Positions 878 to 23,045 are shown, counted from the stretch's first letter. The stretch is DNA of 64,000 nucleotides from a virus (IMGVR_UViG_3300009078_000003:90-64089); one strand, 5' to 3'. Translations and numbers: made by a program. The notes: generated by a model not told the origin, from the letters alone.

Positions 878-1528
878 CTACCTGTTTTTAGACTGAGCAA
901 TCCTTGACAACGTATCCTGGACCCCCTTCAAAGAACAGGTTCTCTGGTGATCACAGAACAAATCAAAATCTATAAACAGCTCATACCCAAGCTTCTCAGC
1001 CTTTTGAAAAATATGGAAATCACAAGTCAGGCTGAGAGTTCCATCCGGGTAGTACAAAAACTCATAGGGTCTCTCAATCTTCTCAAAGATCTCCCTGCGG
1101 AACATTACACAGGCGCCCCCCGTAGCATCAACCCGCTCAATTCCCTTGCCATAGTAAACCGTATACTGCTTCTCTTCGTTATACCGCAGAGTTACCGGAT
1201 ATGGAAAGTATTCCCCATTGTCAGCCTTCATTGAGAAGCAGGTGGCTCCTATTATATCTTTCTCTGCACTGACCAATCTATGCAGGGCTTCTGGTGATGG
1301 GACGATGTCAGCGTCTATAAACCAAAGATAATCTGCGTTGGTCTCCAGAAATGCCTTAACACACCTGTTTCTTGCAGAGTCCAACGGGAATATGCCCTCC
1401 GGCATATAGGGAGTCGGAACTATGTACCTGGTATCATGGGTCCAGTAAATCAGATTGGATACTAACCCTGGCACAATATTTCCCATATTCGGGACTGCTA
1501 TAAAGATCCTCTTTTTCATGTTTAACAT
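878..1528 (-). CDS. GT-A (GT2-like) glycosyltransferase
   Basis: IFIAVP, SARN, YLWFIDAD (DxD), GGACVMFRREIF, DF.IF..A...G. Confidence 0.8.
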   Translation of the reverse strand: MLNMKKRIFIAVPNMGNIVPGLVSNLIYWTHDTRYIVPTPYMPEGIFPLDSARNRCVKAFLETNADYLWFIDADIVPSPEALHRLVSAEKDIIGATCFSMKADNGEYFPYPVTLRYNEEKQYTVYYGKGIERVDATGGACVMFRREIFEKIERPYEFLYYPDGTLSLTCDFHIFQKAEKLGYELFIDFDLFCDHQRTCSLKGVQDTLSRIAQSKNR

Positions 1529-2169
1529 CCTATATTTTCATGTGAAATTCCCTTCACCATCCCCCCTGGACTGCTAAAACTGTCCAAAATAGTTGCGGTA
1601 AAGCCATTGTGTTTATAAATCCTGGATCCTGAATCCCAACCTGGGCTTGTTGTAGTATAAGTATTTATACCATCCCAATCTAATCCAAAAACGCTGGCAA
1701 GGTTAGGTTCAAAACTGTCCAGAATTGTGGCTGAAAAGCCGTTATGTTTGTAAACCTTATGTACAGAAGCATCTATGCTAAGTAAATTTGGGCTGTCCCA
1801 ACACAATTCAGTCGGGTAGGTATTTGGGCTGCTGAAGCTGTCAAGTATGGTACTTGAAAAGCCGTCATGCTTGTAAATCTTAGTAGCTCCTTGATCGCTG
1901 CTAAGAATGTTTGTCCCATCCCAACTTACACCCATAGGGTTTGTAGTAGGAGTGCTGAAACTGTCCAAAATTGAGGCTGAAAATCCATCATGTTTGTAAA
2001 TCTTATCTGCCGTATATACATCAGTACTTAAAATATTTGCTCCATCCCAAGATAGCCCATACGGATAACCTTCAGGGGAGCTAAAGCTATCTAATATTGT
2101 GGTTGAAAAACCACTATGCTTATAGATTTTATTAACCTGGTCATCTGCACTAAACAGATTTATAGCCAT
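1522..2169 (-). CDS. 5-repeat beta-propeller protein, paralog 4
   Basis: Five ~42-aa repeats KIYKHxGFSxTILDSFSSP...GxxWDG; start MAINLFS after GAGG RBS; ends NIGC. Confidence 0.8.
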   Translation of the reverse strand: MAINLFSADDQVNKIYKHSGFSTTILDSFSSPEGYPYGLSWDGANILSTDVYTADKIYKHDGFSASILDSFSTPTTNPMGVSWDGTNILSSDQGATKIYKHDGFSSTILDSFSSPNTYPTELCWDSPNLLSIDASVHKVYKHNGFSATILDSFEPNLASVFGLDWDGINTYTTTSPGWDSGSRIYKHNGFTATILDSFSSPGGMVKGISHENIGC

Positions 2170-2182
2170 CTTAATTACCTCC

Positions 2183-2818
2183 TCAACACCCTGTGTACTC
2201 AAGTGCTAGCCCATAAGAATAAGTTGACGGGCTGCTGAAACTGTCTAGTATTGTGCTTGAGAAGCCATCGTGCTTGTAAATCTTATCTGTTCCAGAGTCA
2301 GTGCTATAAATATTTGTGCCATCCCACGAAATACCATGGAGAACACCCCCCGGACTGCTAAAGCTGTCCAGTATGGTGTTTGAAAAACCATTGTGTTTGT
2401 AAATCTTACCAGTTCCGAAATCTGAACTGTAAATATTTGTTCCATCCCAAACCAAACCTTCTGGATAGTGGCCAGGACTGCTGAAGCTGCTGAGGATACT
2501 GTTTGAAAAGCCATTATGTTTATACAGCTTCTCCCCCCAGCTTCCAGCACTGTACAGATTGGTCCCATCCCAGGCCAGACCAGTGTAACCCTCAGCGTAT
2601 GAACAGTTAAAACTGTCAAGTATCGTTGCGCTGAACCCCTGGTGCTTGAATATAGTTCCTTCACCATAATCAGAACTTAAGAGATTGGAGCCTTCCCAAG
2701 CCAGACCCCAGGGTTGATATAATGGGGCACTGAAACTGTCTAGAATAGAAGTGGAGAACCCATCGTGCTTATAAATCTTGTGGGAATCTTCATCAGTACT
2801 GAACAGATTTACAGCCAT
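2183..2818 (-). CDS. 5-repeat beta-propeller protein, paralog 3
   Basis: Same repeat; MAVNLFS...YTGC. Confidence 0.8.
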   Translation of the reverse strand: MAVNLFSTDEDSHKIYKHDGFSTSILDSFSAPLYQPWGLAWEGSNLLSSDYGEGTIFKHQGFSATILDSFNCSYAEGYTGLAWDGTNLYSAGSWGEKLYKHNGFSNSILSSFSSPGHYPEGLVWDGTNIYSSDFGTGKIYKHNGFSNTILDSFSSPGGVLHGISWDGTNIYSTDSGTDKIYKHDGFSSTILDSFSSPSTYSYGLALEYTGC

Positions 2819-2819
2819 C

Positions 2820-3458
2820 TTAACACCCTATATTTTCATTAGTTAATCCGGTTGGAGTTCCAGAGGGACTGCTAAAACTATCCAAAATAGTACTTGAAAT
2901 ACCACTGTGTTTGTACAGCTTGTCAGTACCTGTATCTGCGCTATATAGGTTCGTTCCATCAAAAGTTAGTCCAGATGGCAAACCCCCCGGACTGCTGAAA
3001 CTGCCTAATATTGAAACCGAAAAGCCATTGTGCTTGTAAATCTTATCTGAATAGCATGAGTCGCTTATGAGATTCCCACTAGCCCAAGTAATACCCTGGT
3101 CTGCCACACCCCCTACTGGATCATTAAAAGAACTTAAAATAGTACTGGAGAAGCCATTATGCTTATAAATATGGCTACTCCCCTGATCGACAGAATAAAG
3201 ATTGCTGCCATCCCAAGCCAGATCACGTGGGCCTGTCCCAGGACTGCTGAAACTATCCAGTATTGAAGAGGTAAAGCCGTCATGTTTGTAAAGTTTGTCT
3301 GTGGTTGCATCAGAACTATACAAATTCGTTCCATCAAAAGTCAGCCCCTGCAAGAGAGTACTAGGGCTACTGAAACTGTCTAATATTGAGGCTGAAAAGC
3401 CATCATGTTTGTAGATTTTGTTCGTTGTCCTATCTGCACTAAATATATTTATAGCCAT
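2820..3458 (-). CDS. 5-repeat beta-propeller protein, paralog 2
   Basis: Same repeat; MAINIFS...NIGC; start placed after GGAGGT RBS. Confidence 0.8.
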   Translation of the reverse strand: MAINIFSADRTTNKIYKHDGFSASILDSFSSPSTLLQGLTFDGTNLYSSDATTDKLYKHDGFTSSILDSFSSPGTGPRDLAWDGSNLYSVDQGSSHIYKHNGFSSTILSSFNDPVGGVADQGITWASGNLISDSCYSDKIYKHNGFSVSILGSFSSPGGLPSGLTFDGTNLYSADTGTDKLYKHSGISSTILDSFSSPSGTPTGLTNENIGC

Positions 3459-3463
3459 CTTGA

Positions 3464-3970
3464 TTACCTCCAGCTCTTCCACTGAGCGACTGGATTAAAA
3501 TACTCAGCACCGCAGTGTGTATTATAAGGTACCTCCAAGTGCCCATCAAACCACTTGATTGTAGTCTGGTGGGCTATCCCGGCAAAGCCAAGCTTCCTTA
3601 ATATTCCTTCAGTCTTGGCCAACACTCTAAATCCTGGAGGCCGGTACAGGAAATTCTCTGGCAGGAAAGGTTTCAGGATATTGGTGGCTGCTTGGATATA
3701 AGCCTCCTGATCCTCCCTGAAACCTTCCTGCGGTCTCAGATGATCATAGCCATGTACCCCAACTGTAACCCAGTCTTTGTTGGCTACCCACCAATCGAAG
3801 AACTCAGAACTCCTGGATATGTTCTCTATCCCCCGATAGTTGGCAATCACAAAAGCTATCAGTTTTGTCTCAGGATACTGCTCTTTGATCTCAAGCCAGT
3901 AATTCCAATACTTGAGATTGGAAGGGCAAACATCATCCGTAGTGAGGACTTTATTTTGCCAGGGCCTCAT
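3464..3970 (-). CDS. Polysaccharide deacetylase (NodB/CE4, DUF2334-like)
   Basis: TTDDV, FVI, GVHGYDH, YRPPG motifs. Confidence 0.75.
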   Translation of the reverse strand: MRPWQNKVLTTDDVCPSNLKYWNYWLEIKEQYPETKLIAFVIANYRGIENISRSSEFFDWWVANKDWVTVGVHGYDHLRPQEGFREDQEAYIQAATNILKPFLPENFLYRPPGFRVLAKTEGILRKLGFAGIAHQTTIKWFDGHLEVPYNTHCGAEYFNPVAQWKSWR

Positions 3971-4400
3971 CTAGAACCTCTTTGAAGGATCTACTCTTCG
4001 TTATTCCGGGTTCCTTACTTTCAGGATCAAGGGCCTCTTTCTCCTTCTTACTCAGAGATTCCCCCCTAGCCACCTTTGCACTGATCGCAATAACCTTTGC
4101 AGAGTCAGTTATTCTCTCAACCTGCTCAGTCCAGTCATCCCCCAAAGCCAGAGCATCATCATACGGAACCTCCTGAGCAGTGGGGTTCGCCAGGAACTGC
4201 ACTGCATCGGCATCGTCCACCCCAATTAGAATAGACTCGTCCCGATCCCCTCTGGCCACGACTTTGTCAAAGTTCTTCTTTAAAGAACTCTCGTATACCG
4301 GGCCAAACCGGACCTTCCTGGCGTCATACTCTTTCGGGTACACATAGCTTGTTTTCTCTGGTGTACGATTCCTTCCAATGGACATCTTGATTAATTTCAT
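3951..4400 (-). CDS. Hypothetical protein within propeller cluster
   Basis: 149-aa ORF with GGAGG RBS, in operon. Confidence 0.6.
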   Translation of the reverse strand: MKLIKMSIGRNRTPEKTSYVYPKEYDARKVRFGPVYESSLKKNFDKVVARGDRDESILIGVDDADAVQFLANPTAQEVPYDDALALGDDWTEQVERITDSAKVIAISAKVARGESLSKKEKEALDPESKEPGITKSRSFKEVLDEALAK

Positions 4401-4412
4401 ATTATTTCCTCC

Positions 4413-5039
4413 TTAACAACCTGTTTGTTCTAAAGACAAACCCCATGAAAAAGTACCTGGACCACTAAAACTGTCCAGAATAGTTGTGGAAAAACCATTG
4501 TGCTTGTAAATCCTATCTACACCACTATCTGCACTATACAAATCAGTTCCATCCCATGTTATACCACGAGGCTCTTCACCAGGACTGCTGAAGCTATCCA
4601 AAACAGTAGCTGAAAAGCCACTGTATTTATAAATCTTATCGGTTGATAGATTTGAACAAAGAGTATTTGTGCCATCCCAAGCAACACCCTGCACACCTAT
4701 TCCTGAACCCTGGGCAAAACTATCCAATATGGTATTAGAGAAACCATTATGCTTATAGACTTTACCGACCCCATAATCAGTACTGAGGAGATTAGTACCA
4801 TCCCATTCCAAACCTTGATTATAGTGATCCGATCGTAAAAAACTGTCTATAATAGAAGCTGAAAAGCCATCGTGTTTGTAAATTTTATCCCAATAATCAC
4901 TGTTACTAAGCATATTAGTACCATCCCAGGCTACATCAACAGCACCATACTTACCAGCACAGCTGTCCAGAATTGAGGCTGAAAAGCCATCGTGTTTATA
5001 AATCTTATTTGAGTCTTGACTGAATAGATTTATAGCCAT
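4413..5039 (-). CDS. 5-repeat beta-propeller protein, paralog 1
   Basis: Same repeat; MAINLFS...QTGC. Confidence 0.8.
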   Translation of the reverse strand: MAINLFSQDSNKIYKHDGFSASILDSCAGKYGAVDVAWDGTNMLSNSDYWDKIYKHDGFSASIIDSFLRSDHYNQGLEWDGTNLLSTDYGVGKVYKHNGFSNTILDSFAQGSGIGVQGVAWDGTNTLCSNLSTDKIYKYSGFSATVLDSFSSPGEEPRGITWDGTDLYSADSGVDRIYKHNGFSTTILDSFSGPGTFSWGLSLEQTGC

Positions 5040-5048
5040 AACTTCCTC

Positions 5049-6383
5049 CTACGAAAGCAGATCCTCTTCTCTAATTAACGAATGCCGCTGTATCTGGTCA
5101 GGATTAAACTGAGCTTCCTCAACCAGTCTCTTCAAACTCAGGACTTTGTCAGAGGGAATCAAGCCAGCCCTATTTGCCAGGTAAGATAATATCTGATCCG
5201 GGGTCTTACATTTGAGATATTCTACTGCCGGCACACTGTTCCTAAACTTTGAAAACTTGTAATAATCAGAATCCAGAATCTCCCCATGCATGATATTGTT
5301 TGGCACATAATTGATCAGCTTGCCAGCTTCCGCTTCCAACAAAGTAAATGGCTCAATATCATAACCCCTGAAAGTGTGAGTAACCCGGAACTCCTGGTCA
5401 TCTATCGCTGAAGTAAGAGCCAGATCTGCCACACTGTAAATCCACAATACAGTGTCCGGGATCTCCAGATTATGAGCGATTGTCCGAACAACTGTCTCTG
5501 GCTTATCAAGATCCAAGTAAGGAATATGCCTGTTTCTGCAAAAACCGTCATAGCAGTACTCTCTCCTAACAGTCCGCATATATTTAATGGGTATTATCAA
5601 CAGCTCTTCACACTCAACAGGAGCAAACGATACTGAATCTTCAAAATCCGATGCATAGGGAAAATCCCCACCCACCGGGTGATAGCAAAACTTATTTGGC
5701 TTAATTACCCTAGCTACCTCCTGTTTGTCAGCCATAACTTTCCATTCCCGCCATGGATAGTCTTTATAGATAATCGTAACATGCTGCACCCAGGTCTTTT
5801 CTTCAAACGCAATTCTTATAATAGGCGTTTCATCACCAAAATACCCAACGTCATACGGCTGCCAGTATTCACTAGGGTCCTTGTTCAGTACATTTTCGAT
5901 GGGATCTCGGGTTGTAGACAAATTCGCAGAAATACTAGTTCCAGGCACAGTGTTCAGCACATTCTGCTTGTTAAAATTGAAAACCTTTATCTGAACAATA
6001 GCCGAAGGCGCAGGGTATTTTTCATCCCTACTCATAATCCTAACCGGGGACCCTTCACTAGCTCTTCGTGTTATATCTGCTGCAGAACAATCGCAGAAAT
6101 AGACATCCGGCCTGTCAAGCAATTCCACCATCTTCTGCCTGTATAATTCTCTCCGATCAGACTGCTTCACCACGAAATCAGGTGTAATTCCAAAAGCAAT
6201 CAGATCCTCCAGAAAGTAATTCTGCAGGCTTACACGCTCCCCAGTAAGCTTGATCCCATCCAGTCTGAGAAAGAAGGTCCCCTTATTCTGCTTTGCCCAG
6301 ATATAGTTATACAGGACATTAACCAAATGTCCGATGTGCAAACGTCCAGAGAGTGAAGGTGCAAATCTTGTGGTTACTTTCAA
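5049..6383 (-). CDS. Class I glutamyl-tRNA synthetase/GluQ-like catalytic domain with inserted discoidin (F5/8 type C)-like domain
   Basis: TTRFAPSLSGRLHIGH, FFLRLD, QSDR, YFCDC, YDGFCR, THTFRGYD, KFSK; ~150-aa insert between CDC and YDGFC; no full anticodon-binding domain. Confidence 0.8.
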   Translation of the reverse strand: MKVTTRFAPSLSGRLHIGHLVNVLYNYIWAKQNKGTFFLRLDGIKLTGERVSLQNYFLEDLIAFGITPDFVVKQSDRRELYRQKMVELLDRPDVYFCDCSAADITRRASEGSPVRIMSRDEKYPAPSAIVQIKVFNFNKQNVLNTVPGTSISANLSTTRDPIENVLNKDPSEYWQPYDVGYFGDETPIIRIAFEEKTWVQHVTIIYKDYPWREWKVMADKQEVARVIKPNKFCYHPVGGDFPYASDFEDSVSFAPVECEELLIIPIKYMRTVRREYCYDGFCRNRHIPYLDLDKPETVVRTIAHNLEIPDTVLWIYSVADLALTSAIDDQEFRVTHTFRGYDIEPFTLLEAEAGKLINYVPNNIMHGEILDSDYYKFSKFRNSVPAVEYLKCKTPDQILSYLANRAGLIPSDKVLSLKRLVEEAQFNPDQIQRHSLIREEDLLS

Positions 6384-7417
6384 TGCAGGACCTCCACAAC
6401 CTTCTCAATAAGCTGGGTCATATTCAATCTCTGCGAAGAAGGAACTACAGGCACCTCATAAGAATACCCCAAAGGAAACTGCACCGTAATCCTGGAATTG
6501 GAAGGCCAGAAGTTCTTATCCGGTATCACTGTCAGTATCCTGGAATCCAAAGGCAGTATTCTAACACTGACAGCATCCATCATCCCTGCCAGCAACCCCA
6601 TGTGGAGCCTTCCACTAAGAACTTCTGGCCTTCCAAACATGTGAAGTGCCATCCAATCAAGATCTGAAACATACCTAGCATTCTCCAAACCCAAAGTTAC
6701 CGCTGAGTAGGTATCCTCCGCAGAGACTGAATAAACGTCCGCCCCTTTTGTTTTAGCATACTCCACCTGGATACGCAAAAACTCATTTAGGTAGCCCTCT
6801 GGCAAAGAATTCTTAGACAAAGAATATCTTGGATCTTGAAAAATACAAAGGGGGCTACTTATAAATCCCCTTCTTCGGAGCGTTTGTAGTGCCCACCTGG
6901 AGGTATCTTTTGACAGATATGATTGTATACCCAATTTACTAAACACAGCCTGAGCCATTGCGTCTCTGGTTACAACCAAATCAAATCCCCCAAAAAGAGT
7001 TGAGATATAGTTTATCGTCTGTGGGAATAGCACCAGCTCACTGTAAACCTGGTCAAAAGAATCAAACTTTACTAGTCTGCTGGAATCAACAGCATATAAG
7101 GGAAAACAGGAACCTACACCTAAAGCTATCTTCTTGGCCTGGGGGAACCTTAGTATAGCTTTCAAGAGAACCTGAGCCTTCAAAGAATGCTCAAGACCAA
7201 ACCATAACCAAGGAGAGCCTGCCAAAACCAAGATGTCCACATCTCCCCAATAAAATTGGCTCATGTAGGTATCCAACTCTTTCTCAGCCCTAAGAGCATC
7301 AAACATCAGGAACTCTACATCCGGGTCTACTGTCCTCAGAATCTCTTGGGTACCCCTGTAAGTAAGCAGGTCCCCGATATTATAATTTGAAGTTGGGTGC
7401 AGAACTAAGACTCTCAC
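6380..7417 (-). CDS. Polysaccharide pyruvyl transferase family protein
   Basis: NIGDLL, AGSP, ALGVG, VTRD, KDT, SGRLH motifs. Confidence 0.75.
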   Translation of the reverse strand: MRVLVLHPTSNYNIGDLLTYRGTQEILRTVDPDVEFLMFDALRAEKELDTYMSQFYWGDVDILVLAGSPWLWFGLEHSLKAQVLLKAILRFPQAKKIALGVGSCFPLYAVDSSRLVKFDSFDQVYSELVLFPQTINYISTLFGGFDLVVTRDAMAQAVFSKLGIQSYLSKDTSRWALQTLRRRGFISSPLCIFQDPRYSLSKNSLPEGYLNEFLRIQVEYAKTKGADVYSVSAEDTYSAVTLGLENARYVSDLDWMALHMFGRPEVLSGRLHMGLLAGMMDAVSVRILPLDSRILTVIPDKNFWPSNSRITVQFPLGYSYEVPVVPSSQRLNMTQLIEKVVEVLH

Positions 7418-9243
7418 AATTTACTCCTTATTCTGTCATACAGCTGATGTGTAGCTTCCAGCTGCTCTGGTGTCTTAACTGCCCTGTCAAAGTGGTACAA
7501 ATGAGGGACCATGGCCTTACCTACCAAAGCCTCCGGCCTAAAACCTTCATGTAGCTTCCCAAACCACCGGACTTTCCCATCCACCCTTAACAACTTGGGA
7601 TTCTGGGAAGGATACGACTCAGGCCACATAACCTGGGTTCTTTCCAGATCAGCATAGTACCTGTGTGGCAATTTCCACCCATCGTAGTTGTTACTCTCCA
7701 ACAGAGGCCAGATCTCCGGGAAGTCTTCCCCTACCTGCATATCAGAGTCAACATAAAGCGCCCATTCTGTTTCTACAAATTCCAGTGCCTTATTTCTTAC
7801 CGCAGCAAAGTCATCCACCCAGTCAATGTGCTCTACTCTTATCCTATAGGTTCTTACAATCTCTACAGTATCATCCGTAGACCCGGTATCACACACCAGG
7901 ACTTCCACCCCATTAAACCCGACAACATTATCCAGACAATATCTTATATAGTTTCCATTGTTCTTTGTAAGGACAACAACAGTCAGCTTACCCTTAGCTC
8001 CCGTCTGTCTGTTCCGTTTGTACTGCCCAGGCAGGAACCAGCTGTTAGTGATTCTTTTGACCTCATCTATAATCCCGCAATATTCAAGATAGCTGGCATC
8101 AAGGAGCCTGGGGTTATGGTAGTCATACAAACTCAGGGAGCCAAAATCCATATTGTCATGAACAGTCCCCCGCTTCTTTGCAATATCCCAGAACTCTGTC
8201 CCTGGATAAGGAGTGGCTACATGGAACCAAAATTTGCCGGTCTTTACTTCCTGGCACCAGCGCATCAGATCGAGTGTCTGGTTCATATCTTCTATGGTCT
8301 CTGTGGGAGCGCCAAACATATAACTGCCATTTACGTTGATATGGTTTTCCAGGGCTGTAAGGGTGTTCTGTTTGAGGTTAGCAACACTAGCTCTTTTACT
8401 GGCCTTCAGGTACTTCAAGATCCTATCAGACCCAGACTCAAATCCAGTGTTAATATTTGTAACCTTTAACCTCTTCAAGCGTTCCCACAGGTCTGGCGAG
8501 AGAGGATCACAGAACCTTGCCTGAATGTGCATATACTTAATTTTATCCAGCAACCCTTCCCGCACCAGGGCATCATACAATTCGTCAAGCCGGGACTCCC
8601 CTATGAAAGCGTCATCCCAGATACCCAACCCCTGACCATATTTGAGGGCACTGGCTATTTGCTTGATAAGCTTATCCATACTCAGCTTCCGGTAGCCTTT
8701 CTCAAACTCTGTAGAACAGAAAACACACCGGAAGGGGCAGCCTCTGGCTGTCATTGTCCATATTATTTCAGACCTACGCACAAACTTATCATAGTTCAAG
8801 CTAGGGAGCTCTGCCTCTGTAAGTTTACCCACACTGCCAACTTTAAATCCCTTAATGTGGGCATTCTCAATCTCCTCAAGAGGTACTCCTTTAATCAGTT
8901 GCTCCACAGCCTTCTCAGCGTCTCCCCTAATAACAGCATCAAACACTGTACCCCGCAAAGAGGCCGGCAAAGGAGTTGTGTGGTGGCCCCCAATCACCAT
9001 AAGACCACCAAATCCCTGGTCCCTGAACTCCCCGGCCAGCTTGGCAACAACATTAAAATCAACAGTACTGCTGTAGAAACCCAGGATGTCCGGCTGAAAT
9101 GTTCTAACATCCTGCTGCAGCTTGTGCTTAGGCCCATAGGAAACCTGGATATGAGCATCATCATCTATATAGCTAAGGATAGATAACGCTCCCAAATAAG
9201 AGGCTCCAAGCCAGTCCGGGACCATGAGCAGGAATTTCTTCAT
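7414..9243 (-). CDS. B12-binding radical SAM enzyme fused to C-terminal GT2 glycosyltransferase
   Basis: GGHHTT cobalamin-domain motif, RGCPFRCVFC (CxxxCxxC), GFESGS, TPYPGT; then VVLTKN...DTGSTDDT...DFAAVRN...YVDSD...LHE. Confidence 0.88.
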   Translation of the reverse strand: MKKFLLMVPDWLGASYLGALSILSYIDDDAHIQVSYGPKHKLQQDVRTFQPDILGFYSSTVDFNVVAKLAGEFRDQGFGGLMVIGGHHTTPLPASLRGTVFDAVIRGDAEKAVEQLIKGVPLEEIENAHIKGFKVGSVGKLTEAELPSLNYDKFVRRSEIIWTMTARGCPFRCVFCSTEFEKGYRKLSMDKLIKQIASALKYGQGLGIWDDAFIGESRLDELYDALVREGLLDKIKYMHIQARFCDPLSPDLWERLKRLKVTNINTGFESGSDRILKYLKASKRASVANLKQNTLTALENHINVNGSYMFGAPTETIEDMNQTLDLMRWCQEVKTGKFWFHVATPYPGTEFWDIAKKRGTVHDNMDFGSLSLYDYHNPRLLDASYLEYCGIIDEVKRITNSWFLPGQYKRNRQTGAKGKLTVVVLTKNNGNYIRYCLDNVVGFNGVEVLVCDTGSTDDTVEIVRTYRIRVEHIDWVDDFAAVRNKALEFVETEWALYVDSDMQVGEDFPEIWPLLESNNYDGWKLPHRYYADLERTQVMWPESYPSQNPKLLRVDGKVRWFGKLHEGFRPEALVGKAMVPHLYHFDRAVKTPEQLEATHQLYDRIRSKL

Positions 9244-9803
9244 GTAATACCCCCCTCTGCCACAAAAACACCAACTGTTCTAAAGGGGAACTGCCATAAA
9301 AAGGGTCCAAGGGTCTTGAGGAGCTCCTCATACTGCCACTCATAAAGATGCTTCTCATAGATGTTCTCTTTGTAATCTGTCTCTGGCTGCCCTAAATGAC
9401 CGTACCCCCGGAACCAGGGCCTAAAAGGTGCCAAAGGAAGAGACAACCACAAGAACTTGGTCCTCTGCTTAAGCCTTACCCAAGTCTGTATAGCCTCATC
9501 TTTATTAAGGTGTTCCAGGACATCGCCAAGAATAATGAGATCGTAAACTGTTTCTGCAAATGCAGCCTTCTGGATATCACAGACATAAATTGTGCCGTAC
9601 TTTTCCAGAAGGCAGTACCTGTCAACATAGGGAGCAAATATCTCTACGGCCTCAACACATGCCTCCGGCTTGACACTCTTTATTATATCACAGTAAATAC
9701 CCAACCCAGGCCCCACATCCAGCACTGTACTTATCTGGTCTTTGAAAGTCTGAAACCAGTCCTCAAATAAAAGTTTTCCTTCATTTGCACTGCTGGGCAT
9801 CAC
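9240..9803 (-). CDS. Class I SAM-dependent methyltransferase
   Basis: VLDVGPGLG, YDLIILGDVLEH. Confidence 0.85.
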   Translation of the reverse strand: MMPSSANEGKLLFEDWFQTFKDQISTVLDVGPGLGIYCDIIKSVKPEACVEAVEIFAPYVDRYCLLEKYGTIYVCDIQKAAFAETVYDLIILGDVLEHLNKDEAIQTWVRLKQRTKFLWLSLPLAPFRPWFRGYGHLGQPETDYKENIYEKHLYEWQYEELLKTLGPFLWQFPFRTVGVFVAEGGIT

Positions 9804-10318
9804 TTCACCTTCTTTATGATAATGTCAAAAGACCAGCGATTGTGAAGAGAATCAAAGCTCAGGAGTTCATACCTCCAACCCATACTGGATATGATTGAAA
9901 GCATATCCTCCGGCCAGTAGTCTCTGGTATGTGCCGGGTTGGCATCCGGGTGGCCCACGTGGGGGTAGTGGTCCCCATGGGGAGTCAGAGTAAACAACAC
10001 TCCCCCAGGTTTAAGTATACGCCAACACTCTTCAAGACCTTCTCTTGGGTCCACCAGATCTTCCAAAATGTGGGAAGCCACCACAAACTCAAACTGCTCA
10101 TCCTGAAACATGTGCAGGTTCCTGATATCTGCAACAATCTCAGGCTCTGCTCCAGGCCACTTATCCACTTCAGTCAGCCGGCCTCTCCACCATTGTTTAT
10201 CAGCATTCTTCGGATCTGACTGGTGTAGCGGCCCGCACCCCAGGTCCACCCCCGTCTTAGGGGTCACACCATACTCACCAAGATACTTCTCTAGTAATTC
10301 CCGCTCACTCTGTATCAT
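9800..10318 (-). CDS. Class I SAM-dependent methyltransferase (type 11-like)
   Basis: VDLGCG, FEFVVASHILED, RILKPGG. Confidence 0.85.
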   Translation of the reverse strand: MIQSERELLEKYLGEYGVTPKTGVDLGCGPLHQSDPKNADKQWWRGRLTEVDKWPGAEPEIVADIRNLHMFQDEQFEFVVASHILEDLVDPREGLEECWRILKPGGVLFTLTPHGDHYPHVGHPDANPAHTRDYWPEDMLSIISSMGWRYELLSFDSLHNRWSFDIIIKKVK

Positions 10319-10320
10319 AG

Positions 10321-11457
10321 CTATCTCATCATAAAGTCTTTCTGGCCTACCTGGCCAGCATCTGTCACCATGTACTTTGGATAGGTGTCAACTAACACCT
10401 CGTTCAAGAGTTCCTCCCCGTACATATTATAAAAGATAGCACCAGGAGGGGCTTTTCGTACTAGACTGTATCCCCCAGTAAGCCACACAACATGGACATC
10501 TTGGGCACCCTTATTGAACACATGCCACTGTACTTTGTCTGTGATCCACCGCTCCTCAACAGAACGGCTCGGCAAAGCCTTAATCTGCTTCTGGTATATA
10601 GAACCCTTTAGCATTCTCATCATGGTCTGCATTACATGGTAGCTTGGCCTCTTTTCCCCACTCTCAGCCACTAACCCCCACCCTTCGTACTGAAGGGCAA
10701 ACCATATTGAATAATCAATACCCATAGAATTAAACAGGATATTCTGCTCTAACAGAGAAACTGCCTGCCGCTCCGGAGTTTGTATTATATGATAAAATGC
10801 TGGATCCCCGGAACAGGGAACTCCAAACTCAGAGACCACTATAGGCTTAGAAACCTCCCACGTAGCAAGGAGTTCATTAACTTTTCCCATCCCAACGAAT
10901 ATGTTTTTGGTTCCCCCATAACCATAAACGTAAAAATTGAGACTAACAAAATCCAAAACATCACCTATCCAGTAACCTAGGCATTCTCGCAGAAAGCCAC
11001 TTCTGTCATCGTTCCCTAAGAGACCATTAAACGTGGGGGTAATCCAACCACAGCCCCCTATTGTGTTCTCAGGATCTATCTCTTTGCCTGTGTAATAAAA
11101 AGCTGACATCAAATCTACAAACTGCTTTGGGCTCCCCCCAAACCTGCACCCAGCCTGATCCGGTCTTGTTTCTGGCTCTCCACCAAAATCCCAGATACTG
11201 ATAAGCCCGTTGTACTTCTTGAACATATCAGCAAAATGGTTCTTTGGAACCTGAACCGTGTTCTTCGGCAGTACGAGCTTCCCAATCAACTTCGTCCCAG
11301 AATCAACTACCTCTTTGCAGACATCAATCGAGGGTTGATATATGTGTAGCGGCAGCTGAACCAGGTCCGGCTTCACTTCCAAAACCAGATTCTTGTACTT
11401 GTCCAAACTCCCCGCTAGAGCTACCCCATACTGACTGATCTCCCACTTTTGTATCAT
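10321..11457 (-). CDS. Clan GH-A glycoside hydrolase-like TIM barrel
   Basis: WDFGGEP (acid/base), DFVSLNFY, KPIVVSEFG (nucleophile), WGLV...KRPSY. Confidence 0.65.
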   Translation of the reverse strand: MIQKWEISQYGVALAGSLDKYKNLVLEVKPDLVQLPLHIYQPSIDVCKEVVDSGTKLIGKLVLPKNTVQVPKNHFADMFKKYNGLISIWDFGGEPETRPDQAGCRFGGSPKQFVDLMSAFYYTGKEIDPENTIGGCGWITPTFNGLLGNDDRSGFLRECLGYWIGDVLDFVSLNFYVYGYGGTKNIFVGMGKVNELLATWEVSKPIVVSEFGVPCSGDPAFYHIIQTPERQAVSLLEQNILFNSMGIDYSIWFALQYEGWGLVAESGEKRPSYHVMQTMMRMLKGSIYQKQIKALPSRSVEERWITDKVQWHVFNKGAQDVHVVWLTGGYSLVRKAPPGAIFYNMYGEELLNEVLVDTYPKYMVTDAGQVGQKDFMMR

Positions 11458-12430
11458 CTTTCATCTCCTTACCGTTAGAAAGCAATTTTCTAAGAGAGGA
11501 CATTACCATCTCAGGTGTTATGCTCTTCATACAAACCATATAATAAGACACATCCCTACAGGCCCCCATCTGCCAATCCCAACAAGGGCAGATCTTGCAG
11601 GTATCCTTCAAGAATAAAATCTCCTTGCTGCCGTAATACTTTACCCGGAACCTAGGATCAATAGGGCCAAAAAGCCCAACAAAGGGGATACCCAGAAACC
11701 CACAAGCGTGGAGTATTCCTGAATCCACCACTATTGCAGCTGAACACTGAGAAAGAACAGAGAACAACTGCATGATATTAACCCTTCCAGTAAGATTTAT
11801 AAGACCAGCCCTCTTTTCAAGCTTAACAAACTGATTGTGCAGAAGAACAATGGCATACTCCCTACTCAGGAGGGTCCCAACAACCTCTTCCCAATTAGGC
11901 CAAGACCGTATTGGAGCAGTAGCCCAGGGAGCTAAGGCTATAATCCTGTTATTCCCAAACTCCTTCAGCTGGGTTCTTCCCCAATCCCCCCAGGCAGGGT
12001 CTACCTTAATCCTGTAATTAGCAACAACATCAGAAGGTCTAAGACCAACACCCATAGCCATAAGATCAAGTCTATGGTAAGCAGCACAGTGGGGCAAGTA
12101 ATCTACCTTGTCCTGAAGATTAACTATAAAGGAACCAGTAGAACTACCATCCAAACAGACAGAGTCTACCAATTTCAGTTTTGTTATAAGTTTTTTGTAC
12201 GGTGGGCTGGTTATCAGATGGACTTTACAAAACTTTGGGGGCAGTTTTCTACGCAGACTGTGGGAAACCAGAGCAGCCATCAGGACATCCCCTAAGCCTT
12301 TCGTTCTCCTAATATAAACGTCCAGCTTTTTATGACAAGAAAGCTCTGCCAGGGTACCCTCAGCTACCCCATGAATGAATAAAGACTTTCCAGGAGTAGC
12401 CGGTGGGGCAGGCTTATGGAAAGTTGGCAT
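11324..12430 (-). CDS. GT9 (heptosyltransferase-like) glycosyltransferase
   Basis: GLGDVLM, RSWP, NLTG, VDSGILH, IPFVGLFGP, CxPC, CMxxI. Confidence 0.88.
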   Translation of the reverse strand: MPTFHKPAPPATPGKSLFIHGVAEGTLAELSCHKKLDVYIRRTKGLGDVLMAALVSHSLRRKLPPKFCKVHLITSPPYKKLITKLKLVDSVCLDGSSTGSFIVNLQDKVDYLPHCAAYHRLDLMAMGVGLRPSDVVANYRIKVDPAWGDWGRTQLKEFGNNRIIALAPWATAPIRSWPNWEEVVGTLLSREYAIVLLHNQFVKLEKRAGLINLTGRVNIMQLFSVLSQCSAAIVVDSGILHACGFLGIPFVGLFGPIDPRFRVKYYGSKEILFLKDTCKICPCWDWQMGACRDVSYYMVCMKSITPEMVMSSLRKLLSNGKEMKDDTKVGDQSVWGSSSGEFGQVQESGFGSEAGPGSAAATHISTLD

Positions 12431-13229: not shown

Positions 13230-14843
13230 TTAAAATCTACTTTCTGGCGTTAAAGCCATACTAAATTCAGTCTCACTGTCATTAGAATAATCAATGGTCC
13301 CTGAGTATATTGCATACAATAAGATCCAAGAACCAAAAATATTTCTCCTGTAACAGCCCTGATTACAGGTTATCGAACGAGTAAAAATAAGCTCCGGGGC
13401 TGTGTAAGCAGGTAAACAGCCAAATAAATCAGATAGGATACATATATTCTCTTTTGCAAATGTATCGCTTGGGAGCCACCTACTAGATCCCCAAGTTGTA
13501 ATTAAAGCATGATCATAATAAGAGTCTACACAGGGTGGGCAAAGATTAACTTTTATCTCATAACCAGATACATTTGGGCAGTAACCAGAGGGTTCTTTAG
13601 ACACCTCCCGCACATACCGCTGATCACACACTTCTGGGGAGATATACTCTGCGGTGTCACATACAAGCGAACAAGGATCAGACCAATGAGGATCTTTTTC
13701 CAACATTCTGCTCTCACTCCTGTACAGGAGATTCAGGTTAGTAAAATCAACTAAGTAAACCACATAAGATTTACTATCAATTATCTCCGTTGTCTTAACA
13801 CAACTCCCTAGAGGAATATCATGGAGCCTCTCTCGTACAAGGACAGCATTCAAGTCTATATCCGGTGCCCCCAGAGCCACCTTCTGTACCTCTAAAGAGA
13901 AATGCCCAGAAACTTCAGTAAACTGTATATTAAAATGGATGATCTCCCCCTCTACCACCCAAAGCACACCACCATCTTCAATCGTAGAACCTGCCGAAGG
14001 CCAAACAGGTTCTATATCCCAAGTTACCCCTCCTGACACACAACGACACAAACGAGATATCCCAGAAACAACCACATCTATGAGATCTCCCTCAGCTTTT
14101 ACTGTACCTGCAGCCCATCCAGGAGTCCCTACAGGCACTTCAAAATAATGAGTAAAATATTTACTAAGGGCACCATTGTTCAGGAAGATCTGCTCTTCCC
14201 CAGTCCCAGACCCTTCCATAAATGGGCCACAAAGCCCCCCAGGTTCTACAATGTTAGACTCACTATCCTCTCCAAGGCTTACTGTAATCTCCTCTCCCCC
14301 AAGAGCAGGTGTAAACCCATTGAAAGTCAATCTGAGATAATACTCACAGGCTCTCGGAAGCAAATCCTCAAAACCAACAATATAGTACCTACTGCTACCC
14401 ACCTCACTGGCCTTTGCCAACAAAACCCTATCCCCCTCATGGAACGCAGAGGCACCCCCTTCTGTATTGCCTGGGGAACAGTGATAGAAAAAGGGGACCC
14501 TCTCCATCCAGGTCTCTAAATCATATACCCCAGTATCCCTCCAAAGAACCCCACCATCTATTATAACCCCACCATCTGTAACCCAGTGAGGCTCGGTATC
14601 CCCTGTCATACCCGCCACAATACAAACATACTCATGGTTATTATCCGCACTGGGGCCTACTTTGTTTCCAACAACCTTAGTAGTATAGACTTCCCAAGGG
14701 GTTGTTTCGTAAGGCTGATCTTTATCAATACGGACATTAGCTGTGATTGGGTCAGATGAATTCATCTCTTTGATCTCCCCAACCAAGATGTCCTGATCAT
14801 AGGTTTGTGCTATCCTAACCTGGTTCTTTCTCAAGCTATCCAC
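13230..14843 (-). CDS. Cys-rich tail/virion protein
   Basis: Position after tail-tip genes; two copies of C..xG.T.D.EP.W.......DGGVLW. Confidence 0.55.
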   Translation of the reverse strand: MDSLRKNQVRIAQTYDQDILVGEIKEMNSSDPITANVRIDKDQPYETTPWEVYTTKVVGNKVGPSADNNHEYVCIVAGMTGDTEPHWVTDGGVIIDGGVLWRDTGVYDLETWMERVPFFYHCSPGNTEGGASAFHEGDRVLLAKASEVGSSRYYIVGFEDLLPRACEYYLRLTFNGFTPALGGEEITVSLGEDSESNIVEPGGLCGPFMEGSGTGEEQIFLNNGALSKYFTHYFEVPVGTPGWAAGTVKAEGDLIDVVVSGISRLCRCVSGGVTWDIEPVWPSAGSTIEDGGVLWVVEGEIIHFNIQFTEVSGHFSLEVQKVALGAPDIDLNAVLVRERLHDIPLGSCVKTTEIIDSKSYVVYLVDFTNLNLLYRSESRMLEKDPHWSDPCSLVCDTAEYISPEVCDQRYVREVSKEPSGYCPNVSGYEIKVNLCPPCVDSYYDHALITTWGSSRWLPSDTFAKENICILSDLFGCLPAYTAPELIFTRSITCNQGCYRRNIFGSWILLYAIYSGTIDYSNDSETEFSMALTPESRF

Positions 14844-16359
14844 CCATACTCATCACATGCCAAGGCATGATAACCACATCACCCCCAGGCTCACTCTTCT
14901 TTGTGTAACTACACACAATATCTACAACCTCATCCCTTTCACCACTTGGAGCTATAGTCCAGCAAAGGGGGACTACCCACTCCCCAGTAGCTAAGTTAAT
15001 CTGGCCAGAAGTACAATCCCCACTACAAACCCCACTAGGGTCAACCACAACAGTCATCTCAGTTGTGAGCCAAGCAGGAAATATCCCCATAACTGGCCCT
15101 GGCAGAAGGGTGTCATAGCTTGTCTTAATTGTAATCGGAGAGTTAGGGTCTATCGGAGCCCTGGAAAGATTAGACAGATTGGGGTAACAGGTACCATCAG
15201 ACTCTCCCAGTTTCTCTAATGCTACTGTTTCTGCTGGAGTATCCTCACCAACACCTAAACATGAGTCAGAAAAGGGTTCTCCATACCTCTTTCCCAGTTT
15301 CTTGAGGAAGACGTGGGTGCCTATTGCATACCCAGCAAAGTCGGTAGCAGTAACCTCTATAGTCTCTCCTTCTGCTTGAACTTTATATTTTAAAGACAAA
15401 TCCCCATAAACACCACATACAGGGTATGTCTTGTCCCCCTCTTCCAATCCTGCCCAACCCAGAGAGTCTGTGTAGTAGTCAAGCAATTTTCCCCCAGTCC
15501 AGGTTGGGGTTGCAAAGAATGTCATACCCACAGTCCAAAATTTCCCAGATGTGTGGTAACTATACTCTCTAAAAAAGCAACAATCCCCATCCGAGACATC
15601 ACACATTTTAACCGGGCATGTTGGTTTAGATATCTCCATACCCCCACTCCCACCAACTACAATTAAAGCAAACAGTGCTTCTCCCGGCAAAGGCAGATCC
15701 TTTCTATGGACCTTCCACTGAAGCTCCCCCGTCTTACGCAGCTGCCCGGACTCTTCAGATCTTTCCCAAACCTCCTCCCCAACATAAGCATCAAAACCTA
15801 AACTACCCAACAAGTACGCCCTCTTTGGCAATGCTCCAGAAGGAAAGCACTCAGAGCAAGCTCTTTTAATAACCCACCCATCAGGGACACGACACTTAAA
15901 AATCCAGTACTCAGTAGTCTTAGTTGACGGCCCAAATGCTGTGTATTCAAGAGTGACTTCCTGTTCCCATCTTATAGTCTCCAACTCAGCACTTTCAAAT
16001 GGATCACAGTCACCTGGAGAAAGTGGCACCTCCCAAAAATCACCAACCCTGGGCTCATTTGTAGTAGACTGCAATGGAATTGTATATACAGGAACAGATA
16101 ATATTTCATCTTCAGAAGGCCGGTCTTCCAGTGCGCACTTGGCTGCCAACTCACACAACTCAAGACTTCTTTCAAGGTATTCTACTTTTTCAGTATCCCC
16201 CAAAGCCTCATACATTTCTATAAGTGCTTGAATAAATGAACAAAAATCAGAGATAGTATCCTGACTCCCCCTTTCAGCCGAGGGCAAAGAATCGTGAGTT
16301 TTCTCTATTGCTTTCCCTTTCGGCTCTCGTGGACAAAGATTTATTGTGTATTCACTCAT
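14836..16359 (-). CDS. Cys-rich tail/virion protein
   Basis: 507 aa; C-terminal domain similar to part of 21226-22644. Confidence 0.55.
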   Translation of the reverse strand: MSEYTINLCPREPKGKAIEKTHDSLPSAERGSQDTISDFCSFIQALIEMYEALGDTEKVEYLERSLELCELAAKCALEDRPSEDEILSVPVYTIPLQSTTNEPRVGDFWEVPLSPGDCDPFESAELETIRWEQEVTLEYTAFGPSTKTTEYWIFKCRVPDGWVIKRACSECFPSGALPKRAYLLGSLGFDAYVGEEVWERSEESGQLRKTGELQWKVHRKDLPLPGEALFALIVVGGSGGMEISKPTCPVKMCDVSDGDCCFFREYSYHTSGKFWTVGMTFFATPTWTGGKLLDYYTDSLGWAGLEEGDKTYPVCGVYGDLSLKYKVQAEGETIEVTATDFAGYAIGTHVFLKKLGKRYGEPFSDSCLGVGEDTPAETVALEKLGESDGTCYPNLSNLSRAPIDPNSPITIKTSYDTLLPGPVMGIFPAWLTTEMTVVVDPSGVCSGDCTSGQINLATGEWVVPLCWTIAPSGERDEVVDIVCSYTKKSEPGGDVVIMPWHVMSMGG

Positions 16360-17150
16360 CCCACTACTATAGAATCATTTTCCAGTAAATCCGCATCACT
16401 CGGCGTGTACCCAGGAGCAGTAACCCTTATAGTATGAACTCCTTTTGCCAGCAGCCCAACATTAATTCTCCCATCCTCACCAGAAACAGAGTTAATCAAG
16501 TTTCCATCCACAACTACCTGGGCTCCTTCAACTTTATAGTTACTGTCACAAGCATCAACTATAACCAAAATAACATCTTCAAAAACTGCATCTGCTACCT
16601 CCAGCTCATAAAAGGCACATGCCTCTTTCCCTACTTCCTCACAATTTCTACAAACCAGGATAGATTGACGCCCTGACTTTACCGGGGAAAAGGCAAGTGA
16701 GGCATAAGAATATCCATAAGTAACCTCAAGCACACCATAAACAGCTATAGACAATGTAACTGTGTCACTCCCCTTTTTTGCAATAACCGAGGGCAGTATT
16801 TTGCTATGAGGAAACTCAGCATCCAAAGCAGAACCTATCCACTTATACGAAAAAGACCCAGACAAGAGGTATGTAAGATTGGCCTCCGTTTCCCCATCAA
16901 AGGTAAGCTCCTCTGTGTGTGTCCCTACTTTGTTTGGAGATAAAATAGAAAAAGTGCCCCCAAGAGTAGAGTAAAAAAGATAGCTGTCAGTAGGGTAGAC
17001 TTTAAAAAATATCTGCTCTCCCAATTCAAACTCAGAGCTGCCACCATTTAACACATCGTCCAGCTCCATGGAGATTTCACAGCTCTGCTCTGCCTGCTCT
17101 GCCTCCTCACATGACGCCTTAAAAGTTACTGAGAGAGATTCACTAGACAT
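16356..17150 (-). CDS. Minor tail protein with C-terminal Ig/PEGA-like domain
   Basis: VEGAQVVVDG...GVHTIRVTAPGY; N-terminal part paralogous to 17143-17625. Confidence 0.55.
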   Translation of the reverse strand: MSSESLSVTFKASCEEAEQAEQSCEISMELDDVLNGGSSEFELGEQIFFKVYPTDSYLFYSTLGGTFSILSPNKVGTHTEELTFDGETEANLTYLLSGSFSYKWIGSALDAEFPHSKILPSVIAKKGSDTVTLSIAVYGVLEVTYGYSYASLAFSPVKSGRQSILVCRNCEEVGKEACAFYELEVADAVFEDVILVIVDACDSNYKVEGAQVVVDGNLINSVSGEDGRINVGLLAKGVHTIRVTAPGYTPSDADLLENDSIVVG

Positions 17151-17625
17151 TGCCGGACACCAGAACCAGTACAGGATATTCCTCTACACCCTTGTCTGAC
17201 AGAATCAAAGAGTACACATCATACTGAGTTGTGTAACTGACAGCTGCTACAGCCACTCCTGTTTTGGCTGCTCTGATTGAGGTGTCCCCAGTTTTCAATA
17301 TTGTACCAAGAGACCGACCAAACCATGAATAGCTCGTAATCGACTTAATAAATTTACTCAGGCTCCCAATGTTTTCATTGGCAAAAGAGACATTCTCTGT
17401 CAGACTCTCTATAGAATTTACAGACTCTAAAAAGATCGTACCATCAGATGACCCAACAGTTATAGTTAAATTAGGGGAATGGTAAATTCGGAAGTAGACT
17501 TTCTCCCCATACAAAAAACAGGACCTGTCTCCATTAAGCTCATCATCCAATTCCACTGACAAGTAACCGTCAGCCGATTCACAACTAGTCTTAAATTCTA
17601 CAAGTATACTGCTTTCAATAGTCAT
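17143..17625 (-). CDS. Minor tail protein
   Basis: Paralogous to N-terminal part of 16356-17150. Confidence 0.5.
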   Translation of the reverse strand: MTIESSILVEFKTSCESADGYLSVELDDELNGDRSCFLYGEKVYFRIYHSPNLTITVGSSDGTIFLESVNSIESLTENVSFANENIGSLSKFIKSITSYSWFGRSLGTILKTGDTSIRAAKTGVAVAAVSYTTQYDVYSLILSDKGVEEYPVLVLVSGNV

Positions 17626-17876
17626 CCCGATATTCTTACCCTCACTACTGATGGATTAGAAAACATGCTGGAATCCAGAACCACCCACCCTTCAGAAGAT
17701 TTACCCACAGTTACTCTCTGCTTTGGAAGGAGTTCTTTTGAAGAAGAAGCCAAAAGCATCATGTTCCCTGTAGCTATCTGCCACTTCCCATTTTTCTTTG
17801 CCTTATACACCCTCCCAGGCTTGATTGTCTGGGGCTTCACAAGCAACACAGATAAATTATTTAGATTATGTCCCAT
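17622..17876 (-). CDS. Small hypothetical tail-region protein
   Basis: 84-aa ORF overlapping neighbour. Confidence 0.5.
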   Translation of the reverse strand: MGHNLNNLSVLLVKPQTIKPGRVYKAKKNGKWQIATGNMMLLASSSKELLPKQRVTVGKSSEGWVVLDSSMFSNPSVVRVRISG

Positions 17877-17878
17877 AC

Positions 17879-20497: not shown

Positions 20498-20499
20498 AG

Positions 20500-21216: not shown

Positions 21217-21225
21217 AGGTTTCTC

Positions 21226-22655: not shown

Positions 22656-23045
22656 TTATGGTAAAACAAAAAGTTTTATCTTCCCAAAGAAATAGGAATG
22701 GGAATCATCAGTCCGCTCCTTTCTTGGGATTATAGGTTCTATATCCAAAACCGGGGGATCCTCACTTCTAAACCTGACTGTGAAAGTCTCAGTCCGGTAA
22801 ACCAAAGTGTAGGTAGCCTTAGCTACAGAAGCAAGGGCTTTAATCTGCATCAAAACAGAATAGGAAATCCACCCCATACTAGCTGTACAAACAAGGTCAA
22901 AGACCTCCCCTCCTTGGATATTATTCTCCCAGATAATCAGGCTGCTCCCTAGCGACCGCTCTACCTCAGCAACTACTCCAGTCCAACCATGAGCAGGTAC
23001 TATGTACATATCATTAGGGAGAGTTATTCCTCCTAAAGTAATCAT
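22656..23045 (-). CDS. Distal tail-like protein
   Basis: ITLGGITLP start; immediately after tape measure. Confidence 0.55.
   Translation of the reverse strand: MITLGGITLPNDMYIVPAHGWTGVVAEVERSLGSSLIIWENNIQGGEVFDLVCTASMGWISYSVLMQIKALASVAKATYTLVYRTETFTVRFRSEDPPVLDIEPIIPRKERTDDSHSYFFGKIKLFVLP

Follow-up and report, generated by a model that had tools for sequence, protein, structure and literature searches.

Background

One of the closest known counterparts of the proteins considered here is Gp45, the receptor-binding protein of the Staphylococcus phage phi11 (PDB 5efv), for which the published account of the propeller describes five blades, a GlcNAc-sized cavity proposed as a GlcNAc pocket and, as the best structural match, again a glutaminyl cyclase (PMC4901313). 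We deal here with four paralogous genes lying between positions 1522 and 5039 of a 64,000-nucleotide stretch of viral DNA (IMGVR_UViG_3300009078_000003:90-64089, called "the window" below; all positions are counted along the whole stretch), which are predicted to encode five-bladed beta-propellers and which stand in a cassette with genes for a glycosyltransferase (GT), a deacetylase-like protein and a small protein of unknown fold. Both in phi11 and, if our reading holds, in this locus, a tail protein of a siphophage contains a five-bladed propeller. There are differences as well. No sequence relation to Gp45 was detected, and Gp45, which is 636 aa long, forms a trimer that has a stem at its N-terminus and tower domains at its C-terminus, whereas the window proteins are bare propellers of 208-215 aa made of highly regular repeats. 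No glycosyltransferase cassette is known to us to accompany the phi11 protein.

The NHL, SGL, Vgb-lyase and glutaminyl-cyclase propellers (which we take to form the six-bladed propeller clan of Pfam) resemble the window proteins in their blades of about 40 aa and in the same four-strand topology. NHL and SGL propellers differ from them in having six blades instead of five, and the proteins described here have a repeat signature of their own (Y-K-H-x-G-F-S-x-T-I-x-D-S-F ... W-D-G-T-N).

Two kinds of glycosylation system are also relevant. Mycobacteriophages glycosylate their virions by means of phage-encoded glycosyltransferases, and several bacterial adhesins are served by a dedicated glycosyltransferase (Aah/AIDA-I, HMW1C/HMW1, and GtfAB with the serine-rich repeat adhesins). 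Our locus is like these systems in that sugar-tailoring genes are clustered with structural genes and in that the gene of a soluble glycosyltransferase lies directly beside that of a repetitive (here putative) surface protein, some homologs of which have Ser/Thr-rich stretches. It is unlike them in that a propeller would take the place of the capsid or tail-tube tail, the beta-helix or the serine-rich repeat as acceptor of a glycan that is itself only predicted, and in that the cassette also holds a deacetylase and the small protein. Finally, and as an analogy only, one may think of mycothiol, with its glycosyltransferase MshA, its deacetylase MshB and its ligase MshC, which resembles an aminoacyl-tRNA synthetase. 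The window and a second phage contig (L042) likewise combine a glycosyltransferase, a sugar deacetylase (DUF2334-like in the window, PIG-L in L042) and a catalytic domain of the class I aminoacyl-tRNA synthetase type; the putative ligase here is GluRS-like and not CysRS-like, it has a large insertion, and a small-molecule thiol pathway is not implied. A propeller on a phage tail and the glycosylation of proteins by phage-encoded enzymes are thus both things of a known kind, each of them, as far as we are aware, from a few cultured phages only.

Results and discussion

The main new result of this study is the linkage of the propellers to a conserved set of neighbours, all on the minus strand in the window. 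Gene X (3951-4400, 149 aa, unknown fold) is the one that most constantly accompanies propeller genes in the related loci; the deacetylase gene D (3464-3970, 168 aa) encodes a DUF2334/polysaccharide-deacetylase-like protein (PF10096, E 1.3e-6); and gene G (878-1528) encodes a small soluble GT-A enzyme (GT2/Anp1-like, phrog_1574) with the DxD motif FIDADI, and overlaps the end of the last propeller gene. Profile searches over all the loci that we fetched find these genes in the recurring order X-(D)-(G)-P, where P is the propeller gene. In 30 of 58 loci (about 24 of 52 once duplicates are removed) the propeller gene has, on its own strand and no more than 600 nt away, a gene for a glycosyltransferase of the G subfamily, which usually abuts or overlaps it; in L008 the match for G is 7 kb from its propeller gene, and in 27 loci there is no match for G, ten of these having less than 700 nt of upstream flank. 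X is present in 31 of 61 loci, no more than three genes away from the propeller gene in 29 of them, and homologs of the deacetylase stand beside glycosyltransferase and propeller genes in eleven loci (L013, L027, L036, L046, L047, L053, L058, L060, L063, L064 and L071).

The structural genes that accompany the cassette differ from contig to contig: portal and major head protein genes in L014 and L017, Mu-like Phage_tail_S and Gp36 genes in L042 and, for a locus with X-P only (L019), a T7-like internal virion protein and the N-terminus of a tail fibre. The cassette is also found in a contig binned with a metagenome-assembled genome (MAG) of Bipolaricaulota, and in L071, which was reached by starting from the glycosyltransferase. 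Taken together, the profile searches indicate that X, D and G are not incidental neighbours of the propellers. The two aspartates of the DxD motif (D72 and D74) are invariant in 15 homologs of the glycosyltransferase, so that an intact DxD enzyme adjoins a candidate acceptor, as it does in phage-encoded protein glycosylation systems. In the reciprocal search, in which a glycosyltransferase profile of seven sequences recovered 17 loci, the close relatives of G (58-63% identity, two of the 17 loci) carry cassette genes. Neither the repeat family, nor its five-blade modularity, nor the cassette was found in Pfam, PHROGs, the GenBank phages or a full-text literature search.

The four propeller genes, which we name A to D, are paralogs, as the initial annotation of this DNA by a model had noted; they lie on the minus strand and encode proteins of 208-215 aa that are 55-60% identical in pairs. 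Propeller A (4413-5039, 208 aa) has five repeats, the C-terminus LEQTGC and a TAA stop that is followed by the ribosome-binding site of the next gene; B (2820-3458, 212 aa, ending NENIGC) has its TAA stop 1 nt before the ATG of C; C (2183-2818, 211 aa, ending LEYTGC) is the protein that was used for modelling; and propeller D (1522-2169, 215 aa, ending HENIGC) has a 7-nt overlap with the start of the glycosyltransferase gene. The lengths of B and D are counted from ATG codons at 3458 and 2169, which are likely to be the true starts; GGAGG is found 7 nt before each, and it is indeed these two genes that have a leader in common (40 nt, 93% identity), consisting of the Shine-Dalgarno site, a spacer and the first codons.

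As had been noticed, all four proteins start with MA[IV]N[LI]FS and end with E-x-x-G-C. In between, each has five repeats opening with K[ILV]YKH (20 in total, of about 41 aa each), the first four being 40-45 aa long and the fifth shortened to 33 aa and ending in GC; on the DNA, a 123-nt periodicity is recovered as 19 copies of one repeat family, far above chance. The two motifs first described as common to all 20 blades turn out to be consensus strings: KIYKHxGFSxxILDSF is literally present in seven and, if conservative substitutions are allowed, in all 20, and GxxWDGxNxxS is literally present in six and loosely in 16, the four that fail being the shortened fifth repeats. The idea of two variable segments per blade, one after DSF and the other before KIYK, is confirmed by the column entropy of the 20 repeats, which reaches 3.4 bits in columns 17-26 and 3.1 bits in columns 38-43; variation in length is confined to these same two segments, while K4, G7 and S15 are invariant and Y3, H5, F8, I12, L13 and F16 are each kept in 19 of 20 repeats.

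The AlphaFold2 model of propeller C, made with 45 aligned sequences, is a five-bladed propeller with exactly 20 strands (pLDDT 95.4, pTM 0.92), that is, with five four-stranded antiparallel blades around a central axis, as first proposed. In each blade the strands follow the order G-L-x-W-D-G (A), N-L-x-S-x-D (B), K-I-Y-K-H (C) and T-I-L-D-S-F (D), which makes the segment after DSF the D-to-A loop and the segment before KIYK the B-to-C loop. Since these two connections lie on the same face of a four-stranded antiparallel blade, the strand order supports the claim that both variable loops are on one face of the propeller, which we call the top face (this is a topological argument and not a surface map); by the same argument the conserved D-G-T-N and H-x-G-F-S turns should be on the opposite face.

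Repeat 5 is without its N-L-x-S-x-D strand, and the N-terminal NLFSxD aligns with the NLYSxD of the other repeats (DSSP assigns strands to residues 2-9 and 201-208). It seems, then, that the N-terminus supplies the strand absent from repeat 5 and that the C-terminal strand is the innermost one of the blade that the N-terminus begins. If so, the C-terminal Gly-Cys would be next to the N-terminal Met, both of them on the conserved face and at the end of an innermost strand. The last residue (211) is modelled at a pLDDT of 48.

A structural search against PDB representatives ranked five-bladed glutaminyl cyclases first, and Foldseek concurs; sequence identity in the structural alignment is only 15-16%. 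Judged from the model, the propellers are of the NHL/SGL/glutaminyl-cyclase structural class. The BFVD search gave generic propeller matches alone, with TM scores up to 0.75. Tachylectin-2 and other lectin propellers were not among the matches listed (the best 50 of each of two PDB searches), which is uninformative either way. No Pfam family matched any of the four proteins at E<=0.01 (there were two sub-threshold, chance-like hits); this applies to the NHL repeat (PF01436), from which the five blades also set them apart, and to the glutaminyl cyclases (PF05096), the Glu_cyclase_2 model giving no match at that threshold.

A word-indexed search returned 84 homologs, and an exhaustive profile search 7,448 cluster representatives at E<=1e-3 (2,805 at E<=1e-10 and 471 at E<=1e-30), including proteins as long as 6,267 aa. 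By sequence, the four proteins therefore belong to a large unnamed family, found mostly in uncultured phages. A tblastn search of 50,697 GenBank phage records gave no match, a pattern search in prokaryotes, with each species represented by a single genome, turned up just two MAG contigs (one of Bipolaricaulota and one of an uncultured archaeon), and PHROGs yielded only fragmentary matches to families of unknown function. Distant members of the family match DUF6923, Vgb_lyase, SGL and Glu_cyclase_2.

A hidden Markov model (HMM) of the blade found five, ten or 50 blades in all 14 complete open reading frames (ORFs) of the viral loci, and five, ten or 20 in 34 of the 42 stop-ended ORFs of the metagenome loci (the other eight have one, three, four or nine). 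Such multiples of five indicate that the five-blade unit is a module. One example is a protein of 3,664 aa (L013, 6800-17794; the same contig as L052) with ten five-blade units joined by long poly-Ser/Thr linkers of the (TSSS)n type; its gene comes directly after that of a two-domain glycosyltransferase and is near a cytidylyl/adenylyl-transferase gene. Other members have poly-Ser tails, Ig-like domains or SPRY domains. L062 (1-1638) contains a tandem pair of propeller genes, each truncated by an end of the contig, which together show a domain of about 190 aa inserted after blade 2, in a top-face loop, which can thus accommodate a whole domain. Two of the 16 fused forms tested are fused to tail-protein domains, P0092 (phrog_3475, E 9e-35) and L039 (phrog_13352, E 1e-23), and neighbours in other loci include tape measure, minor tail, tail fibre, adaptor, portal and capsid genes. 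From these sequences, the five-blade unit appears to serve the family as a display module, used alone, as up to ten linked beads, or fused to tail domains. (The C-terminal domain of P0003 and P0004, which was considered as a candidate head-tail adaptor, had no PHROGs match, and this candidate was dropped.)

How did the loops come to differ? The initial annotation called them hypervariable and saw in them an antibody-like repertoire, in which nearly identical framework DNA would allow the shuffling of blades by recombination. The paralogs are in fact old: their synonymous differences are saturated (pS 0.65-0.97), and non-synonymous differences amount to 0.16-0.22 in the framework and 0.45-0.77 in the loops. 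The ratio of non-synonymous to synonymous rates (dN/dS) is 0.10-0.14 in the framework and 0.33-0.86 in the loops, and never above 1, where it could be computed (two or three of the six pairs gave a value in each class, the rest being saturated; the mask of loop 1, the segment after DSF, was four residues short in blade 4 of C, which does not affect the overall picture). The framework DNA is not nearly identical, since the repeats are only 60-86% identical to each other and their longest exact common word is 20 nt, so that there are no long identical tracts for recombination. Nor is there any sign of concerted evolution or recent exchange in the blade comparison, mean identity being 0.551 between blades at the same position in different genes, 0.518 between different positions of the same gene and 0.519 between different positions of different genes.

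We also looked for a diversity-generating retroelement (DGR). There is no reverse transcriptase among the ORFs scanned in the window (the IMG/VR virus record from which the window comes, 64,089 nt, is estimated to be about 51% complete, and a DGR may yet lie elsewhere in the genome), and no repeat of at least 45 nt that could be a template links 1522-5039 to the rest of the window. The 29 contig pieces that cover 1400-5100, from four runs of four studies, have no differences and no joint; the identical genotype comes from three runs on freshwater sediment (2017) and one on soil (2024), and this identity is weak evidence, given that rare variants are lost from contigs and that the depth was 2-5. 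The antibody-like reading is thus not supported by these comparisons: the loops appear to differ because the copies are old and their loops relaxed, and not through any generation of diversity by the phage. As predicted from sequence and model, the four genes are ancient paralogs, each encoding a stand-alone five-bladed beta-propeller.

What are these propellers for? The explanation that we prefer, tentatively, and that may well be right, is one in which the four proteins belong to the tail and serve there as surface or adhesin modules, with sugars attached by the enzymes of the cassette. The minus strand of the window carries a siphovirus-like late region (terminase, portal-side genes, protease, major head protein, tape measure and tail proteins), at the downstream end of which lie the four propeller genes, 3' of the tape measure (23042-28726, minus, 1,894 aa) and tail genes (among them those at 13230-22644) and 5' of an NlpC/P60 gene; they are encoded, like a receptor-binding protein of the Gp45 type, in the tail/baseplate module. 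The loops are rich in Ser, Thr, Pro and Gly (S+T 29-32%, with 15% Pro in loop 1), and 13 of the 20 loop-1 segments open with S-x-P. The propellers would be made late and O-glycosylated in the cytoplasm by the cassette glycosyltransferase, the candidate acceptor sites being the Ser/Thr-Pro-rich loops of the top face; the deacetylase would trim or tailor the sugar, and X might be a chaperone or an adaptor. In this particular phage, extra tailoring could come from a GluRS-like ligase, a pyruvyl transferase, a radical-SAM enzyme, methyltransferases and a GT9-like protein (all described below). The products would then be placed at the tail end of the virion, where each of the four modules would present a top face of its own.

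Several points weigh against this explanation. The 17 loci that have at least 700 nt of upstream flank and no match for G do possess a propeller gene, and X occurs without a glycosyltransferase in L019, L023, L024, L038 and L059; such loci imply that glycosylation is not obligatory for the fold. The distant relatives of the glycosyltransferase (22-40% identity, 15 of the 17 loci of the reciprocal search) have no propeller nearby, which means that the link to propellers belongs to one subfamily of this enzyme. The four window proteins, at 208-215 aa, are propeller only, with neither an anchoring extension (such as the N-terminal anchoring or trimerisation region of a receptor-binding protein) nor a poly-Ser/Thr tail, and the conserved Ser/Thr residues may be purely structural. 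Incorporation into the virion and the glycan are both things that we infer, and the absence of any match in the GenBank phage records leaves the family with no experimental anchor.

The strongest rival, which we find unlikely and still worth serious consideration, and which is a more sober version of what the initial annotation proposed, is that the propellers are unglycosylated, lectin-like receptor-binding subunits with four different binding faces, the sugar enzymes acting elsewhere, on virion proteins, on glycans of the host envelope or on a small molecule. The position of the variable loops, which topology and entropy place on the canonical ligand-binding face of propellers, would suit such a function, as would the Ig-like and SPRY domains of homologs, the domain inserted in the top face in L062 and the location of the genes at the end of the tail module. 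Yet this hypothesis leaves unexplained why a glycosyltransferase of one subfamily should adjoin or overlap the propeller gene in 30 of 58 loci with varied structural genes, and it has no explanation for the poly-Ser/Thr linkers either. Moreover, aromatic residues are no commoner in the loops than in the framework (Y+W is 8% in both), and the loops show no sign of diversifying selection or of variation in populations.

A second proposal concerns the C-terminal Gly-Cys, which the initial annotation regarded as invariant and as a docking tag or modification site. Invariant it is in the four paralogs; beyond them it is confined to a small clade, being found, always on other contigs, in two of 214 collected homologs (P0013 and P0040) and in ORFs of three metagenomic loci (L031, L042 and L062, the last of these being the ORF that terminates within its contig). 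Lack of conservation in homologs had been named in the initial annotation as a ground for rejecting its view, and this narrow distribution goes part of the way towards that. The nine proteins of this GC type share G-[LI]-x-x-E-x-x-G-C and are all stand-alone, with no other anchoring extension. Two of them, P0040 (127 aa) and L031 259-651, have just three or four repeats; they may have truncated starts, may have arisen by deletion, or may be subunits that have to pair before a ring can close. Other stand-alone members of the family stop at the same structural point with different endings (...TWG, ...TFG, ...THT, ...DYMPI), and fused members run on from that point into linkers; the fold thus needs no Cys.

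What makes the GC type worth a further look is the gene at 5049-6383 (minus, 444 aa). Residues 2-109 of its product match the class I E/Q catalytic domain, and there is a weak second match at 326-422, with K-F-S-K-F where GluRS has KLSKR; HIGH-like and K-[FL]-S-K motifs are kept, about 220 aa are inserted between the two halves at the site of the GluRS acceptor-binding insertion, and there is no anticodon-binding domain. A homolog with 45% identity (L042 10055-11329) lies beside a GC-type propeller and a glycosyltransferase on the Mu-like phage contig, so that a GluRS-like gene adjoins the propeller/GT pair in both GC-type loci with enough flank. An HMM built from these two proteins had no match in any other of the 61 loci, and a pattern scan of viral contigs revealed no further relatives; the association, seen in two loci, is suggestive.

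The Gly-Cys could therefore be a functional handle, for disulfide or metal-mediated docking on the bottom face or as the acceptor of the GluRS-like ligase, and on account of this adjacency we keep the "modification site" as a minority reading, quite doubtful as it is. In its favour are the invariance of E-x-x-G-C in the paralogs, its recurrence elsewhere, the lack of an alternative anchor in GC-type proteins and a GluRS-like neighbour that retains HIGH-like and KMSKS-like motifs. The rarity of this ending, the different endings at the same point, the two loci on which the GluRS association stands and the low pLDDT of the last residue all speak against it, and a clade-specific ending inherited by descent accounts for the data equally well. 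More speculative, and in our opinion improbable, is the idea, by analogy with mycothiol, of a sugar decorated with an amino acid that the cassette would assemble on a structural protein of the phage: the glycosyltransferase would add an N-acetylhexosamine to the Ser/Thr-Pro loops of the top face, the deacetylase would free the amine, and in GC-type phages the GluRS-like ligase, working without tRNA, would attach glutamate to it (or would load the thiol of the C-terminal Cys instead).

That the propellers are themselves enzymes, of the glutaminyl-cyclase, lactonase or glycan-degrading kind, is very improbable in spite of the matches of distant relatives to the SGL, Vgb_lyase and Glu_cyclase_2 models, since no Pfam enzyme family matches the four proteins at E<=0.01, since the conserved residues are those of the repeat framework and the usual active-site face is the variable one, and since four divergent copies here, and chains of up to ten units with mucin-like linkers elsewhere, fit display modules better.

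The rest of the window provides the setting of the cassette. Upstream of the propeller/GluRS block, further sugar-tailoring genes occupy 6380..12430 on the minus strand: a pyruvyl transferase (6380-7417), a B12-binding radical-SAM domain and a GT2 domain fused in one 609-aa chain (7414-9243; an unusual fusion), two methyltransferases (9240-10318), an unannotated ORF (10321-11457) and a GT9-like protein (11324-12430). L042, too, has homologs of two of these, 9240-9803 and the GT9-like gene. The NlpC/P60 peptidase (444-875, minus, 143 aa), directly after the glycosyltransferase G, matches the hydrolase portion found at the C-terminus of large minor tail proteins (phrog_329) and is here stand-alone. 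Two HNH homing-endonuclease genes are found within the tail module (29883-31010 and 31982-32593, minus), the first with an internal 80-nt direct repeat (at 30798 and 30915, 79% identical), and between the portal-side genes and the terminase a gene for a TnpB/Cas12f-like transposon protein (OrfB_IS605 and TNB domains) overlaps one with an RF-1 domain (an ArfB-like peptidyl-tRNA hydrolase) at 41419-42860 on the minus strand. As to the host, the major capsid protein gave only matches of 23-26% identity, to phages of unrelated hosts, and no tRNA genes were found in the window.

Conclusions

On phage contigs from sediment, soil and groundwater metagenomes, a five-blade module is genetically tied to a dedicated glycosyltransferase, a deacetylase and X, and it belongs to a very large family that has no Pfam model, no PHROG function and no match among GenBank phages. 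If the amino-acid-sugar or the Cys route were true, it would mark the first time that a phage is seen to direct a truncated class I aminoacyl-tRNA synthetase at a protein, and environmental phages would be shown to have a widespread display system, the "glyco-propeller", that has no name as yet. Should the propellers be glycosylated, the cassette would be a compact system for tests of protein glycosylation in a heterologous host; and if they are glycosylated surface modules, as we tentatively prefer to think, environmental phages would have in them a common means, not seen until now, of dressing or targeting their particles.

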